Assembly (NCBI GenBank): GCA_023664455.1
Contig: JAMPFM010000007.1
Coordinates: forward strand, 13,955-77,954
From: Blautia sp.
GTDB taxonomy: Bacteria > Bacillota > Clostridia > Lachnospirales > Lachnospiraceae
Reading direction: 5' to 3'
DNA length: 64,000 bases
Below the pieces are notes generated by a model. It did not search any database. It had not been told where the DNA came from and saw nothing but the letters and a program-made list of their open reading frames with translations. Shown one piece after another: positions 4,008-57,798 of this stretch (position 1 is its first letter; every line of letters begins with the position of its first letter). A program made the translations under genes and the position numbers.

Positions 4008-6665
4008 ATGGCAGCGAATCAGGGAAGAGGCGCGGGCACGAGAAAAAGACAAACCGGTGGTTCCACCGCAAAAAAGACAACGAATCGTTCAAATAGACGT
4101 AACGTGGCAGATAAAGGCAGACAAAAACGGGACGAACCGATGGACTTGGCAATCCGTAATGAAATTTTGCTGATTGCGCTGTTGGCCGTAGCCGTTATCC
4201 TGTTTTTCTGTAATTTTGGCGTAGTCGGCAAAGTCGGAAATGCAGTCAGCAGTTTTTTGTTTGGTCTATTCGGGCTTACGGCATATGTCGCTCCAATCAT
4301 CATTTTTCTGGCGATTGCTTTTGGAATGTCCAATATCGGAAATCATGTCGCAACGAGAAAACTGGTGGCGGGAACCGTTCTTTTTCTGGAAATCGGAATC
4401 GTCTGCGAATTAATCAGTGCAAAATATACGCAGACGACTACTTATGAGCTTCTGGAAATTTATAAAAGATGTAGTGAAATGCGAAGCGGCGGCGGTATTA
4501 TCGCCGGTTCCGCCGCCTATGCCTGCTATAAATTGCTGGGGATGGTCGGAACCATTCTTGCGCTGATTGTTATCTGTATTATCTGCGTCGTGATTATGAC
4601 GGAAAAATCTTTTATTAAAGGCGTGACCACACAGGGCAGGAAAGTTTACGAGCGTTCTATGGAAGATGCCGCTTACCGGCGGGAGCGGGCAAGGGAAAGA
4701 CGGGACGCGATGGAAGAGCGCCGGGCAAAAGAAGCCCAGCGCAAACAGCAGTTGGCGGAAGAAAAAGAGAATGAGAAAATTCTCAGGATGGATAAGAAAG
4801 TGTCCGGCGTCATGCTGGATACCGCCTTAAATGCCACTTCTACAAAAGAAAACGAGAATACCACGAAGATTCGTGATGATATACATGAAATAACGATAAA
4901 CGATGCAGTGGAACTGGAAGAAGAACCGGAGCAAGAAATCCCTGCCATAAAAAAGCAGGATACATATCATTTTATTGAGAGCGAATCAGATGAATTGGAT
5001 GAAGTAAAACTACCGGAGTCATCCTTTGAGGAAACGTATCCTCAAAACAGAGTCCGTCCTCTCGCTAGTCTTTCCAAGCCGGCTCCTTCCGTATCGACAG
5101 ACAGCGCTGAAAAATATCGTGAAGAGAATCGCGAAAAAGTTGGCATCGTAGAAGAGACACCCAAAGTAGAAGGAAAGATGCCGAAACAGTATCATTTCCC
5201 GCCGCTTAGCAGGCTTGCCAAAGGAAAAGGGAAGAACAATGCCAATTCAGACAAGGAGCTGCGGGATACGGCAATCAGATTACAGCAGACGTTAAATACT
5301 TTCGGTGTTAAAGTCACGGTTACGGATATCAGTCAGGGACCCGCCGTCACGAGATATGAGTTACAGCCCGAACAAGGCGTCAAAGTCAGTAAAATCGTGG
5401 GGCTTGCCGACGATATCAAGTTAAACCTTGCCGCTACGGATATCCGAATCGAAGCGCCGATTCCGGGAAAGGCGGCGGTAGGCATTGAAGTGCCCAATAA
5501 GGAAAACTCTGCTGTTGCGTTGAGAGACTTGCTGGAATCCAAGGAATTTCGGGAATTTCCGTCCAATCTTGCTTTTGCGGTGGGGAAAGATATTGCCGGG
5601 AAAATCGTTGTAGCAGATATCGCCAAGATGCCGCATATGCTGATTGCAGGGGCGACTGGCTCTGGAAAATCGGTATGCATTAACACCATCATTATGAGTA
5701 TTTTGTATAAGGCGCACCCAGACGACGTCAAATTAATTATGGTAGACCCGAAAGTCGTGGAATTGAGCGTCTATAATGGGATTCCGCATCTATTGATTCC
5801 AGTTGTCACAGACCCGAAGAAGGCGGCGGCGGCACTCCATTGGGGCGTTGCAGAGATGACGGAGCGCTACAAGAAATTTGCAGATTATAATGTTCGTGAT
5901 TTGAAAGGATATAATAAGAAAGTCGAGAGTCTACAGGCGGAAGGAGCAGAGGATGCTCCGCAGAAAATGCCCCAGATTCTGATTATTGTGGACGAGCTGG
6001 CGGATTTGATGATGGTTGCGCCCGGAGAGGTAGAAGAGTCTATCTGTCGTCTGGCACAGCTTGCAAGAGCCTGCGGTATCCATTTGATTATTGCCACACA
6101 GCGTCCGTCCGTTGACGTTATCACCGGTCTGATTAAGGCGAATATGCCCAGCCGCGTTGCCTTTGCCGTTTCTAGCGGCGTAGATTCCAGGACGATTCTG
6201 GATATGGTAGGCGCGGAAAAACTTCTCGGAAAAGGCGATATGTTGTTCTATCCCCAAGGGTATCCGAAACCGGCAAGGGTTCAGGGTGCGTTTGTATCCG
6301 ATAAGGAAGTGTCCGACGTTGTGGATTTTCTAAAAAATCAGGAAATCGGCAATATATATAATGAAGATATTGAAGAAAAGATTAAAAATATCGACAGCGC
6401 TTCTCCCGGCGGCGGAACGGGAGCTTCCGACAGCGGCTCAGAATATGATCAGTATTTTGTGGAAGCCGGCAGATTTATCATTGAGAAAGATAAGGCTTCG
6501 ATTGGTATGTTACAGAGGATGTTTAAAATCGGCTTTAACCGGGCGGCAAGAATTATGGACCAATTATGTGACGTTGGCGTCGTAGGAGAAGAAGAAGGCA
6601 CAAAGCCCCGCAAAGTATTGATGTCTATGGAAGAATTTGAACAATTGGTAGAAGAGATTATCTAA
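4008..6665 (+). CDS. ftsK: DNA translocase FtsK/SpoIIIE
   Basis: N-terminal TM segments, acidic linker, GPAVTRYE, Walker [25 protein letters not shown]-terminal gamma domain ([21 protein letters not shown]). Likely start 4008. Confidence 0.95.
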
Positions 6666-14973: not shown

Positions 14974-14996
14974 AAATCTAGAAATTTCCTGTAAAT

Positions 14997-15204
14997 AGGT
15001 AATTGCGAAACTAAGATTTTACAGCCGCCCGTTGTGCAGAATATACAATCCAACGCAGGCACGCTCTCGCTACGGTTCAAACGCAGCGGTACATAAGATG
15101 CCAGAGTACGGCATCTAAGTACCGGCGTTTTCACAGTACCTGCTTATGGAGTTGTATATTCTGTACAACTACATGTTTCTAAACTTCAGTTTCGCAAATT
15201 GCCT
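14997..15204 (+). mobile_element. 208-bp MITE-like palindromic repeat, copy 1
   Basis: TIRs aggtaattgcgaaact / agtttcgcaaattgcct. The 195-bp core differs from the reverse complement of copy 3 at 10 positions. Degenerate 13-bp flanking repeats. No transposase in the window. Confidence 0.75.
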
Positions 15205-15238
15205 ATTTCCTAATAAAATATGAAAGGAAGATGGACGG

Positions 15239-16543
15239 ATGAGAATGTATGATTTGATTATCAAAAAAAGAAACGGCGGGGCGCTTACCCCGGAAGAAAT
15301 CGAATTTATGATTTCCCAGTACACTGCGGGGCATATTCCCGATTACCAGATGTCCGCAATGATGATGGCTGTCTATTTTCAGAAAATGACGCCGCAGGAG
15401 ACGGCGGCGCTTACCCTTTCTATGGCGCATAGCGGCGAAATGCTGGATTTATCCGGGATTGATGGTATCAAGGTGGATAAACATTCCACCGGCGGCGTAG
15501 GCGACAAGACCTCGCTTGCGCTTACCCCTATGGTTGCCGCATGCGGCGTTAAGATTGCCAAGATGAGCGGCAGGGGACTTGGGCATACTGGCGGGACCAT
15601 TGATAAATTAGAGAGTTTTCCGGGATTTTCCACGGAAATTACGTCCACACATTTCATAGACCAGGTAAACCGTATCGGGATATCCATCATGGGGCAGACG
15701 CTGGATATCGCGCCCGCGGATAAAAAACTCTATGCCCTCAGAGACGTTACGGCGACGGTAGATAATATGTCCCTGATTGCAAGCTCCATCATGAGTAAGA
15801 AATTAGCTTCCGGGGCGGACGCTATCGTTTTAGACGTCAAGACGGGAAGCGGCGCTTTCATGAAAAAAGAAGAAGATGCTTTCGCGCTGGCCAGGGAAAT
15901 GACACTCTTAGGACGCCATGCCGGCAAAAAGACGATAGCCGTCGTATCCGATATGGATCAGCCGCTGGGATTTGCCGTCGGCAATGCCTTAGAAGTCAAG
16001 GAAGCCATCGAAACGCTGCATGGCAAAGGCCCGGAGGATTTCGTGGAACTCTGTATGACGCTTGGCGCGCAGATGCTGATCGCCGCAAAGAGGGCGGAAA
16101 CTGTAAAACAGGCGAAAAACATGCTGCAAACCGTCATAGAAGATGGATCGGCGCTTCGTAAACTGGCGGAATTTATCGAGGCGCAGGGCGGGGATAGCTC
16201 CGCCGTATATGATACGTCGCTTTTACCGCAGGCTTCCATCGTGGAAGAGATTATCTCAGAAGAAGAAGGCTATGTTACTAAAATCGTCTGCGATGAAATT
16301 GGAATCTGTTCCCTTATCCTCGGCGGCGGCAGGGAAAACAAGGAAAGCGTAATCGACTTATCGGTGGGACTCATCCTGCATAAGAAAGTCGGGGATTATG
16401 TTAAAAAAGGGGAATCCCTGGCGAGCATTCATGCAAACGACAAGGAAAAACTGGCTTTGGCGAAAGAGCGGTTTTTAGACGCCTATTCTTTTCAGGAAAC
16501 ACCGCCGGAGAAAACGCCGCTTATAAAAGGCGTTCTCGATTAA
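15239..16543 (+). CDS. pdp: Pyrimidine-nucleoside phosphorylase
   Basis: IPDYQMSA, DKHSTGGVGD, KMSGRGLGHTGGTIDKLES, SIMSKK. Confidence 0.96.
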   Translation: MRMYDLIIKKRNGGALTPEEIEFMISQYTAGHIPDYQMSAMMMAVYFQKMTPQETAALTLSMAHSGEMLDLSGIDGIKVDKHSTGGVGDKTSLALTPMVAACGVKIAKMSGRGLGHTGGTIDKLESFPGFSTEITSTHFIDQVNRIGISIMGQTLDIAPADKKLYALRDVTATVDNMSLIASSIMSKKLASGADAIVLDVKTGSGAFMKKEEDAFALAREMTLLGRHAGKKTIAVVSDMDQPLGFAVGNALEVKEAIETLHGKGPEDFVELCMTLGAQMLIAAKRAETVKQAKNMLQTVIEDGSALRKLAEFIEAQGGDSSAVYDTSLLPQASIVEEIISEEEGYVTKIVCDEIGICSLILGGGRENKESVIDLSVGLILHKKVGDYVKKGESLASIHANDKEKLALAKERFLDAYSFQETPPEKTPLIKGVLD

Positions 16544-27271: not shown

Positions 27272-28096
27272 ATGAGTCGGCAATCCTACACAATATCTGA
27301 ATTGACCGCAAGAGTCAATCAACTTTACCACAAATCCCAGACCGAAGGTCTGACGGAAGAAGAGAAAAAAGAGCAGGCCGAACTTAGGCGCGCCTACGTT
27401 GCCAATATCCGAAACAATTTAAAAGGACAGCTTAACAATATATCCATTGTGGAACAGGACGGCTCTATTAGCAACGTCGGCGAACGCTATGCCAGAGAGA
27501 AGAAAAAGAAACTGCGCAGTCAGGCATTGTCCGCAAGAGACGCCATGACAGCGGATGACTTGAAAAACAAGAGCGATAAAATCATCCAGACGCTTCTTGC
27601 AATGGACATTTACCGGGAAGCAGAAGCCGTTCTTTCCTATGTAAATTACAAGAGCGAAGTCATTACCGAATCTTTGCTGACACAGGCGCTTATGGATGGA
27701 AAACAGGTTTTCGTGCCCAGAGTGTCCGGGCAGGAAATGGAGTTTTATAAGATTACGGATATGCAAGAACTCTCGCCGGGCTATCAGGGCATCCGGGAGC
27801 CTTTATCCGGGCTGTCTTTTTTCGCTGGGAAAGACAACTTATGCGGGCAGGGCAAAACGCCGCCGCTTATGATTCTTCCTGGCGCCGCTTTTGATGAAGA
27901 GAGACATCGAATCGGCTATGGGCGGGGATATTATGATAAATATTTAACAAAGGCAAAAGAGCTTCAAATCCCGTTTCGCACGGTAGCGCTGTGTTTTGCT
28001 TCTCAGATGGTTCCTGAGATTCCCTGCGAAGCGCATGATATCAGACCGGATGTGCTGCTGACGGAAAATGGGGTGTATGAAGAGAAGAATGCATAA
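27272..28096 (+). CDS. DUF896 (YnzC-like) domain fused to 5-formyltetrahydrofolate cyclo-ligase
   Basis: aa ~5-65 RVNQLYHKSQTEGLTEEEKKEQAELRRAY (DUF896-like); remainder KKKLR...R, SEV.T, GIREP, ILPGAAFD...HRIGYGRGYYDKYL, PCEAHD. Confidence 0.82.
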   Translation: MSRQSYTISELTARVNQLYHKSQTEGLTEEEKKEQAELRRAYVANIRNNLKGQLNNISIVEQDGSISNVGERYAREKKKKLRSQALSARDAMTADDLKNKSDKIIQTLLAMDIYREAEAVLSYVNYKSEVITESLLTQALMDGKQVFVPRVSGQEMEFYKITDMQELSPGYQGIREPLSGLSFFAGKDNLCGQGKTPPLMILPGAAFDEERHRIGYGRGYYDKYLTKAKELQIPFRTVALCFASQMVPEIPCEAHDIRPDVLLTENGVYEEKNA

Positions 28097-28105
28097 GAAC
28101 AGAAT

Positions 28106-28286
28106 CTTAGGTTATTGCAGACGTCCGTTGCGCAGAAGATATAATCCAACGCAGGTCCGCTCTCGCTACGGTTCAAACGCAGCGGTACATAAGATGCCAA
28201 AATACGGCATCTAAGTACCGGCGTTTTCACAGTACCTGCTTATGGATTGTATCTTCTGCACAACTACACATTTCTAAACGTAAATA
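28106..28286 (+). repeat. Copy 2 of the MITE-like repeat (outer TIRs eroded)
   Basis: 28115-28279 aligns to the copy 1/3 core, including the cggtacataagatgcc-N7-ggcatctaagtaccg hairpin; lacks the ttgcgaaact ends. Confidence 0.8.
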
Positions 28287-28313
28287 ATAGGAATAGAAAG
28301 GAAATATAAAGAC

Positions 28314-29561
28314 ATGTACAATTTAACAGAAATCGGACAAAAAGCTGTTGCAGCAAAATACTGTTTACAGACTTTGACTACCAAGCAGAAAGATGATGCG
28401 CTGCAGGCAGCGGCGCGTGCGCTGTCTGCAAGGGCGCGGGAAATCTTAGAGGCAAATGAGAAAGATATCGAAATCGCAACAGAAAACGGTATGCATCCTG
28501 GAATGCTAGACAGGCTGCGTCTGACTGTGGAACGTGTCGATGCGATGGCGCAGGGATTGATGCAGATTCGGGCATTGCAGGATCCCATTGGCGAGACGTT
28601 GGATACTTTTCAGAGACCCAACGGGCTTCAGATTACGAAACGCCGCGTTCCGATTGGCGTTATCGGCATTATTTACGAGTCCAGACCGAACGTAACGGCG
28701 GACGCTTTCGGACTTTGTTTCAAAACCAGCAATGCGGTGATTTTAAAGGGCGGAAAAGATGCGATTTATTCTAATATCGCCATTTCTAATATTATCCGGG
28801 AAAGTCTGGCAGACGAGGGCATTTCGGAGGGCGCCGTCCAGCTCATTACCGATACGGACAGGGAAGTTACCAATGCGTTTATGAAGCTGAAACAATATGT
28901 GGACATCCTGATCCCCAGAGGCGGGGCGGGACTCATCCGTGCCGTTGTGGAAAACAGCACGATTCCGGTCATTGAGACAGGCACCGGGAACTGCCACATC
29001 TATATCGACGAAGATGCCGATACCGCCAAGGCAATTCCCATTATTATCAATGCCAAAACCCAGCGCATCGGCGTCTGCAATGCCTGTGAATCCTTGGTCG
29101 TCCATGAAAAAATCGCGGATAGCTTTCTGCCCGCTTTAGGGGAGGCGCTTCGCAGTAGACATGTAGAAATGCGCGGCGATAGAACGGTGCAGACGATCCT
29201 TCCAGACTGTCTGGCGGCGTCAGAAGAGGATTATGGAACCGAATACTTAGACTATATAATATCCATCAAGACCGTGGCTGCACTACAGGAAGCAATCGAA
29301 CATATCAACCGATATACGACAGGACATTCGGACGCCATCATCACCGAAAACAAAGAACATGCACGGATGTTTTTACAGGGAATCGACTCCGCCTGCGTTT
29401 ATGTCAATGCCTCTACAAGATTCACCGATGGATTTGAGTTTGGCTTCGGCGCGGAAATCGGCATCAGTACCCAGAAACTTCATGCAAGGGGACCAATGGG
29501 ATTAAAAGAACTGACCAGCTATAAATATGAAATCATCGGAGATGGTCAAGTCAGGGCATAA
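28314..29561 (+). CDS. proA: Gamma-glutamyl phosphate reductase
   Basis: [67 protein letters not shown]. Confidence 0.97.
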
Positions 29562-57500: not shown

Positions 57501-57538
57501 AAGGAACTGACTATCAGATACAGGAAACTTTTGTTTTC

Positions 57539-57746
57539 CAGGCAATTGCGAAACTAAAGTATAGAAACGTGTAGTTGTACAGAATATACAATTCCAAAAG
57601 CAGGTACTGTGAAAACGCCGGTACTTAGATGCCGTATTCTGGCATCTTATGTACCGCTGCGTTTGAACCGTAGCGAGAGCGTGCCTGCGTTGGATTGTAT
57701 ATTCTGTACAACGGACGGCTGCAAAGTCTTAGTTTCGCAAACGACT
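57539..57746 (-). mobile_element. 208-bp MITE-like palindromic repeat, copy 3 (inverted)
   Basis: Perfect 12-bp TIR ttgcgaaactaa/ttagtttcgcaa at 57546-57557 and 57729-57740; flanked by the exact 13-bp direct repeat aacttttgttttc (57526-57538 and 57747-57759). Confidence 0.8.
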
Positions 57747-57798
57747 AACTTTTGTTTTCAAATTGAAAGGAAACCGGATACTAAAGGAAGCAAACATT

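Follow-up and report, generated by a model that had tools for sequence, protein, structure and literature searches.

The 138-nt inverted repeat at positions 28127-28264 of the window (the whole stretch of 64,000 nucleotides analysed here) is the inner rod of a hairpin MITE of about 208 bp, and the compensatory base changes between its copies are probably the result of selection for a single strand that folds. The unusual feature of the element is a structured module, which is conserved across the family Lachnospiraceae and is undescribed.

Copies of the element in the window

Three repeat copies are present in the window, copies 1 and 2 on the forward strand and copy 3 on the reverse strand. 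The copies and the parts of copy 2 are as follows (R1 is the covariance model and A1 the alignment described below):

14996-15205 (+): copy 1, full MITE bounded by the terminal repeats TAGGTAATTGCGAAAC / GTTTCGCAAATTGCCTA; R1 match at 15038-15162, 96.9 bits
28100-28126 (+): decayed left shell of copy 2, cagaatcttaggttattgcagacgtcc; terminal repeat beyond recognition when compared with the family alignment
28127-28264 (+): rod module of copy 2 (inverted repeat I1), 22-nt inner arms around the core and the apical hairpin
28156-28166 (+): 5'-side bulge, TCCGCTCTCGC in copy 2, consensus NNCGCTCTCGC; unpartnered on the 3' side, invariant or nearly invariant columns of A1
28167-28235 (+): paired core, helix of TACGGTTCAAACGC / GCGTTTTCACAGTA interrupted by a conserved G.A mismatch and by an AG bulge
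28184-28219 (+): apical hairpin, GGTACATAAGATGCC-AAAATAC-GGCATCTAAGTACC; loop at 28199-28205, family consensus ARARTAC
28265-28290 (+): decayed right shell of copy 2, tacacatttctaaacgtaaataatag; start codon of a proA-like gene (28314) 24 nt downstream
57540-57747 (-): copy 3, full MITE; R1 match at 57581-57705 (-), 97.8 bits

The stretch 28127-28264 covers only the inner rod of copy 2; the whole element measures about 208-210 bp at copies 1 and 3. Full copies (copies 1 and 3 and most copies in the genome) are bounded by 16-nt terminal repeats, TAGGTAATTGCGAAAC / GTTTCGCAATTACCTA, which are decayed in copy 2. The two arms of copy 2 (28127-28148 and 28243-28264) are 22 nt long and 91% complementary. 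The inner arms read GTTGTGCAGAATATACAATCCA / TGGAGTTGTATATTCTGTACAAC in copy 1 (from 15031), GTTGCGCAGAAGATATAATCCA / TGGATTGTATCTTCTGCACAAC in copy 2 (from 28127) and GTTGTACAGAATATACAATCCA / TGGAATTGTATATTCTGTACAAC in copy 3 (minus strand, about 57720).

A previous sequence-only reading had reported compensatory base changes between these copies, and direct reading of the letters confirmed that they are real. At pair 6, copy 1 has G.T, copy 2 has G-C and copy 3 has A-T; at pair 12, copy 2 has G-C and the other two have T-A. The C.A mismatch described for copy 2 was found at pair 5, and its reported 1-nt deletion corresponds to a bulged G/A after TGGA, which is present in copies 1 and 3 and absent from copy 2. 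Also as described, the stem of the central hairpin (GGTACATAAGATGCC/GGCATCTAAGTACC) is the same in all three copies and its loop varies (AGAGTAC, AAAATAC and AGAATAC). The arm pattern matched three times in the window with 0.01 matches expected, and the apical hairpin matched three times at up to two mismatches with none expected. Compared with shuffled sequences, the fold of copy 1 had a z value of -9.65 (RNA fold), and of -8.3 on the other strand.

Copy 1 has a gene for a SPOUT methyltransferase and one for a pyrimidine-nucleoside phosphorylase as neighbours, and its target duplication is degenerate (TTTCCTGTAAA / TTTCCTAATAAA). The same site is empty in congeneric genomes, where the flanking genes are 22-64 nt apart as compared with 250 nt here. 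Copy 3 is flanked by a direct target duplication of 12-13 bp (GAAAACAAAAGT, at 57748-57759 and 57527-57538); its neighbours are a gene for an RluA-type pseudouridine synthase and recU, and it is antisense to both. Downstream of copy 2 lies an ORF (28314-29561) with a Pfam match to Aldedh. Copy 2 is present at the same site in the sister genome G044 (locus L053) and, because this site is shared and the ends are decayed, it is an older insertion that predates the split between the two genomes. A further observation concerns the DNA upstream of copy 2, where a single ORF at 27272-28096 (+) encodes DUF896 (residues 11-65) and a 5-formyltetrahydrofolate cyclo-ligase (residues 78-265), both confirmed in-frame by Pfam, and is flanked by a gene for an amino-acid kinase (proB-like) and one for an aldehyde dehydrogenase (proA-like).

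A MITE family with an insertion-sequence partner

The genome to which the window belongs (G000; 3.40 Mb in 107 contigs) contains 91 matches to a 20-base core pattern at up to two mismatches. The window copies belong to family A, of which 55 unique copies were collected, 44 from G000 and 11 from a sister MAG. In these 55 copies pair 12 was T-A in 38, G-C in 16 and C.A in one, and pair 6 was A-T in 22, G.T in 16, G-C in 12 and A.C in four; alternative Watson-Crick pairs were found at 7 of the 22 inner-arm positions. No ORF of at least 60 aa confined to the element was found.

Twenty contig ends of G000 fall within copies of the element or of an insertion sequence. At seven contig ends TAGGTAATTGCGAAAC runs on into non-MITE sequence of two kinds, one for each end of an insertion sequence that lacks an assembled body in G000. 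In G000 and 60 congeners the body is unassembled or absent. A contig scan with the exact pattern taken from the G000 end gave no match, and a degenerate end pattern matched more than 120 Lachnospiraceae loci, some of them contigs of 1759-1762 bp with nothing but the insertion sequence in them. A full insertion sequence recovered outside G000 (locus L176) is 1760 bp long, carries the terminal repeat TAGGTAATTGCGAAAC and has a single ORF of 485 aa. The product resembles IS1182/IS5-type transposases in its N-terminal DUF772 domain (Pfam, 1.8e-11) and its weak match to DDE_Tnp_1; since its score with the NCBIfam IS1182 model, 58 bits, is far under the cut-off of 270 bits, the 1.76-kb partner is only provisionally classified as an IS1182/IS5-type DDE insertion sequence. 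The domain searches gave no support for placing it in the IS66/ISBst12 group.

The sister genome G044 is 92-98% identical to G000 in aligned stretches, and comparison of the two revealed clean filled and empty sites with target duplications of 11-13 bp (TAAATATGATAT, TAAGCAATAGGA and ATTGACTCATC). The element is thus a hairpin MITE with a partner of known type. The same comparison showed that rods have also been lost by microhomology deletion, leaving solo shells, and rods are therefore deletion-prone. Solo shells, consisting of the terminal repeats and a few internal bases, were seen in G000 at C19:238681-238760, C42 at about 4590-4600 and C19:298890-298902; two of the deletions fall between short direct repeats (8-bp ATTCTGCA). 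The MAG of G044 (JAMPHJ01, NALB_7961_20; loci L007-L094) is titled 'Muribaculaceae bacterium', a label that looks wrong, because this MAG is 92-98% identical to G000 over kilobases and the other carriers of the element are Lachnospiraceae; genome placement puts it in the same genus as G000.

MITE insertions occur in both orientations and lie mostly 10-30 nt ahead of a ribosome-binding site. Divergent intergenic regions hold 29% of the copies as compared with 11% genome-wide, an enrichment that follows from the preference of insertion for sites upstream of ribosome-binding sites. Neither G000 nor 96 loci contained a version in which an ORF separates the halves of the core; the half copies are internal deletions, truncations or scaffold gaps. 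Some family-A copies carry an insertion of 75-78 nt in the apical hairpin (AAGTGTGAAAAATAAATTTTTCACACGCAAGTTTG...), which in part forms a hairpin of its own and resembles a small nested element (in G000 C70:8339-8623, C38:8532-8782, C33:26780-27058, C19:443989-444265, C17:2501-2780 and C65:2510-2756, and in loci L065 and L085).

The rod is a module with its own covariation

A second family (family B) has other terminal repeats (CACGGAAATCAATTTTCAGTCAGC) and wholly different arms, and has only the asymmetric centre in common with family A. Its members, none of which is in the window, are MITEs of about 230 bp with target duplications of about 9-11 bp; examples in G000 are C19:100980-101111, C107:21878-22009 and C49:11128-11259. 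The exact core pattern was found at 96 or more loci in many Lachnospiraceae MAGs, and these loci together with G000 yielded 167 unique instances, among which 32 arm families unrelated in sequence were distinguished. Within each of the 32 families the arms are complementary (mean score of an arm with its own partner 21/36, as compared with 3.1, sd 2.3, across families). The interior of the rod is a module separate from the MITE shell.

Read on the top strand, the module consists of a stem that is variable and often about 28 bp long, a bulge of 10-11 nt (NNCGCUCUCGC), a helix, an AG bulge, the pairing CGGUAC/GURCCG, the segment UAAG/CUAA and the apical hairpin. The core helix has the form U-N-C-G-NNNN-AAACGC / GCGUUU-NNNN-A-N-N-A with a conserved G.A mismatch, the UAAG/CUAA segment contains an A.A mismatch, and the apical loop is often ARARKAC; the conservation of the core is in part due to ascertainment, because copies were found with the core pattern. 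In copy 2 the paired core continues beyond the AG bulge with CGGTAC/GTACCG and then TAAG/CTAA with the A.A mismatch (RNAalifold and pair counts on A1). Similar apical loops (AAAGGAC, AAAGTAC and GAGGGAC) occur in unrelated stem families.

Representatives of 27 families were aligned with MAFFT (alignment A1, gap-free in the arms); core pairing at fixed offsets was dropped in favour of MAFFT and a covariance model, because the families differ by 1-nt indels. RNAalifold predicted 42 pairs, 30 of which show double changes. Of the cells of A1, 87.2% were paired as compared with 35-48% when the partners were slid, 286 cells were double-changed (69-119 in slid controls), and the covariation score was 0.558 (at most 0.17 in the controls), a value that none of 500 shuffles reached. 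Within the core, columns 38-39/116-117 covary (GC 14, UA 10, CG 3) and columns 42-55/102-113 are invariant pairs. The suggestion of the sequence-only reading, made from three copies, that selection preserves the structure was thus supported by a larger alignment that covaries, in 27 stem families with slid and shuffled controls and in the 55 family-A copies.

The covariance model built from A1 (R1) is strand-specific: the window copies reach 97-106 bits on the matching strand, and the opposite strand gives 14. For copy 2 the match is at 28135-28256 (+) with 106 bits (E 2.4e-25), and the opposite strand scores 14 bits.

In many stem families (for example loci L013, L034, L049 and L070) the 5' stem base, which lies 31-35 nt upstream of the core bulge, carries GGACG(C). 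Among 59 distinct rods, 14 have it on the 5' side and two on the 3' side, and its reverse complement occurs once on each side. The 3' base is often GCTG(T/A)T or GGCTAC. These letters may be an asymmetric basal motif that marks the ends of the rod.

Rods without a shell

The shell-less rods of G000 each have an arm variant of their own. The differences between them lie in a segment of 6-8 bp and are fully compensated, with 27-30 of 30 pairs formed. G031 is a genome of 2.3 Mb with 39 cores, and the arms of most of its rods are unique, near-perfect and 30-65 nt long. The idea that such arms are guide-like or target-derived copies of genomic sequence was rejected, for each of the 32 arms of G031 had no match apart from itself and the arm it pairs with. 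Two irregular arrangements were seen in this genome, namely one rod inverted within the apical loop of another (L132, G031:C31, at about 22903) and a tandem duplication of the 5' half-core with its arm (L105, G031:C17, about 15222-15323). For shell-less rods, the analysis turned up neither a binding protein nor a mobilising enzyme.

Distribution

R1 matched in 59 of 151 genomes and in 58 of the 150 Lachnospiraceae genera sampled (about 40%). In an order-wide sample it matched in 10 of 18 Lachnospiraceae genomes and in none of 183 genomes of other families. Rfam 15 gave no match at the gathering threshold in the window and none up to E = 10 on copy 1; for 20 loci of another genome, the sole match was a sub-threshold miRNA hairpin. 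The element was not found in the published literature by topic or by sequence strings, in a search whose coverage of that literature was incomplete.

What keeps the arms paired

Orthologous copies were compared between G000 and G044 (22 copy pairs, 931 stem pairs). The differences comprised 89 one-sided, three compensated and eight other double differences, with 0-1 compensated differences in slid controls; at least one of the three compensated differences came from a locus where the whole copy had apparently been replaced. These numbers show that in-place copying from arm to arm is rare on the G000/G044 time scale. In 18 orthologous pairs the arms and core had diverged by 2.9% and the flanks (more than 130 nt away) by 5.1% (odds ratio 0.55, p = 6e-6), a slower divergence that, in these 18 pairs, could partly stem from the ascertainment of the core or from conversion among copies at different sites. 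For shell-less rods, which lack an identical donor at any other site, the values were 2.6-2.7% as compared with 4.5%. In B-type rods, the CCCGCG near the core (G000 C30, C35, C43 and C72, compared with L029, L093, L072 and L094) differed between orthologues mostly by CpG transitions (CCCGCG to CCCACG, CCTGCG, CCCGTG or CCCGCA), a possible sign of methylation and deamination of cytosines in CG.

The strand asymmetry between G-U and A-C pairs that the sequence-only reading had singled out as a check was absent, with 174 top-type versus 190 bottom-type cells and 71 versus 81 distinct sites (p = 0.47 for the sites). Orientation relative to the flanking genes was likewise unbiased, with 26 versus 20 copies in G000 and, for shell-less copies, 16 versus 8 in G031 and 17 versus 13 in other genomes (33 versus 21 in total). 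The absence of both an asymmetry and an orientation bias leaves selection specific to RNA unsupported. Of the earlier suggestion of selection on an RNA or single-stranded DNA hairpin, selection on the folded strand stands as the best reading, and it could act on resident copies, on which of the copies propagate, or on both; the part specific to RNA is not supported.

Complementary arms could also be maintained by DNA-level copying alone, either by template switching at the quasi-palindrome or by mismatch correction in an extruded hairpin, so that a mutation in one arm is erased or transferred to the other. Quasi-palindrome correction is an established mutation mechanism in bacteria. Such copying fits the strand symmetry of the mismatches, the switch of pair 12 by a double transversion (T-A 38, G-C 16) with intermediates nearly absent, the shell-less rods that are paired at 27-30 of 30 positions and yet differ from one another, and the unique near-perfect arms of G031. 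It is at odds with the orthologues, where, by a rough steady-state estimate, upkeep by conversion only with mismatches near 8% predicts about 15-20 compensated differences, and 89 one-sided and three compensated ones were observed. Moreover, identical inherited G.T and A.C mismatches persist in at least 25 shell-bearing B copies and 16 A copies, the core bulge and the G.A and A.A mismatches, which copying would erase, are retained in 58 genera, and the slower divergence of the arms relative to the flanks is not predicted by neutral copying. We therefore consider DNA copying on its own unlikely. The arm-to-arm conversion that the sequence-only reading had offered as an alternative is weak in place and could act over long time scales, and we regard DNA-level palindrome correction as a minor or long-term contributor.

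A structured RNA made from one strand, serving as a 5'-UTR element that affects stability or translation of the downstream gene or as a small RNA, would explain why the conserved bulges, mismatches and apical loop resemble curated RNA motifs, why R1 is strongly strand-specific, and why U.G, in the top-strand type, is the single frequent non-Watson-Crick pair in the core helices (8 of 27 families). The location of MITE copies 10-30 nt upstream of ribosome-binding sites also means that copies are probably transcribed in 5' UTRs. The G.U excess and the transcription-tied orientation expected of such an RNA are both absent, however: G.U is not in excess of A.C in the arms, orientation is unbiased (26 versus 20 in G000, 33 versus 21 for shell-less copies elsewhere), and copy 3 is antisense to its neighbours. 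A conserved promoter is impossible in unique arms, and Rfam 15 gave no match even at E = 10. We judge a one-strand RNA to be quite unlikely. That the three window copies pair by chance or by common descent, their pairing being unconstrained, is very improbable. The two double changes could be subfamily markers, and G-C at pair 12 does mark a subfamily, but 27 unrelated stem families all pair and the slid and shuffled controls are far lower, which refutes this explanation.

The MITE has the same 16-nt terminal repeats as the 1.76-kb DDE insertion sequence. Under selection for a folded strand, the reading we prefer, the compensatory changes would arise because copies or lineages with unpaired stems are lost or not propagated. 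A DDE transposase requires terminal repeats only and gives a MITE no reason to keep the rod, which counts against this reading, as do the unique arms of G031. The core would be read strand-specifically by a putative protein. As the mismatches are strand-symmetric and the orientation is random, the folded molecule is more likely to be DNA, that is a hairpin or cruciform in single-stranded DNA; alternatively, RNA might fold in both orientations, RNA from one strand being the less likely reading. A broader proposal, that the rod module is a distinct and undescribed class of structured nucleic acid, restricted to Lachnospiraceae, under purifying selection and with a putative protein reader, the shells being secondary vehicles, seems to us possible but doubtful. 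Such a class could be a hairpin-dependent mobile or recombination element of a non-Y1 type, or an RNA class active in either orientation.

Comparison with known systems

The element resembles the hairpin MITEs of other bacteria, such as Correia/NEMIS of Neisseria, ERIC/IRU of enterobacteria and RUP of Streptococcus pneumoniae, in being short and non-coding, with terminal inverted repeats and target duplications, present in tens of copies, intergenic near gene starts and capable of folding back over its full length. As with MIC231, a MITE mobilised in trans by IS231A, a cognate insertion sequence with identical ends is present. It differs from hairpin MITEs in that its interior is not what deletion has left of the insertion sequence, the partner having no rod. 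The core, moreover, is an independent module that also occurs without a shell, with unrelated stems, and in 58 of 150 genera.

With the REP/REPIN sequences of Proteobacteria and their RAYT (Y1 HUH) transposases, the rods share a dispersed intergenic location, a hairpin structure that is kept while its sequence shifts between lineages, a copy number that varies among related genomes and decay by internal deletion. Here, however, conservation lies in the tip of the hairpin and in the core rather than in the stem, and the terminal repeats and target duplications of shell-bearing copies show DDE transposition, unlike in REP/REPIN. The Y1 transposase domain (PF01797) had no match in G000, G063, G070, G113 or G145, the last four of which have at least 22 rod matches each, and across the 151 genomes Y1 and rod presence were not associated (hand-tallied 2x2 table: 33, 26, 60, 32). 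REPIN/RAYT identity was rejected on these grounds, no Y1 being present in G000 and several other high-copy genomes and no association being found. As to the REP-type GTAG, a top-strand ...GGCTAC (GTAGCC on the bottom strand) ends 5 of 59 rods, and GGACG stands at the 5' base in 14 of 59. Palindromic elements derived from IS200/IS605 (PATE) were rejected as well, given the absence of Y1 and the presence of terminal repeats and target duplications in shell-bearing copies.

Integron attC sites are recognised as a folded single strand, with structure conserved more than sequence and with functional extrahelical bases, and the rods would be similar to them in these respects. Unlike attC, they occur as single dispersed copies among housekeeping genes and do not form cassette arrays. 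By direct reading the arm ends are GTT...AAC, opposite to the attC order RYYYAAC...GTTRRRY, and identity with attC was rejected on the arrangement of the copies and the order of these ends. Membership in a curated structured RNA family was rejected too, the covariance models of Rfam 15 giving no match.

Implications

The elements break short-read assemblies, as the 20 contig ends in G000 illustrate, and a covariance model would aid the annotation of Lachnospiraceae MAGs. The hundreds of independent stems are a natural data set for separating structural selection from DNA-level palindrome correction. For the host, a 200-nt hairpin directly upstream of ribosome-binding sites could change expression, and a genome may hold up to about 90-140 rod sites. 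If the core is a fold recognised by a protein, it would mark a nucleic-acid-handling system in about 40% of the genera of a major gut family.
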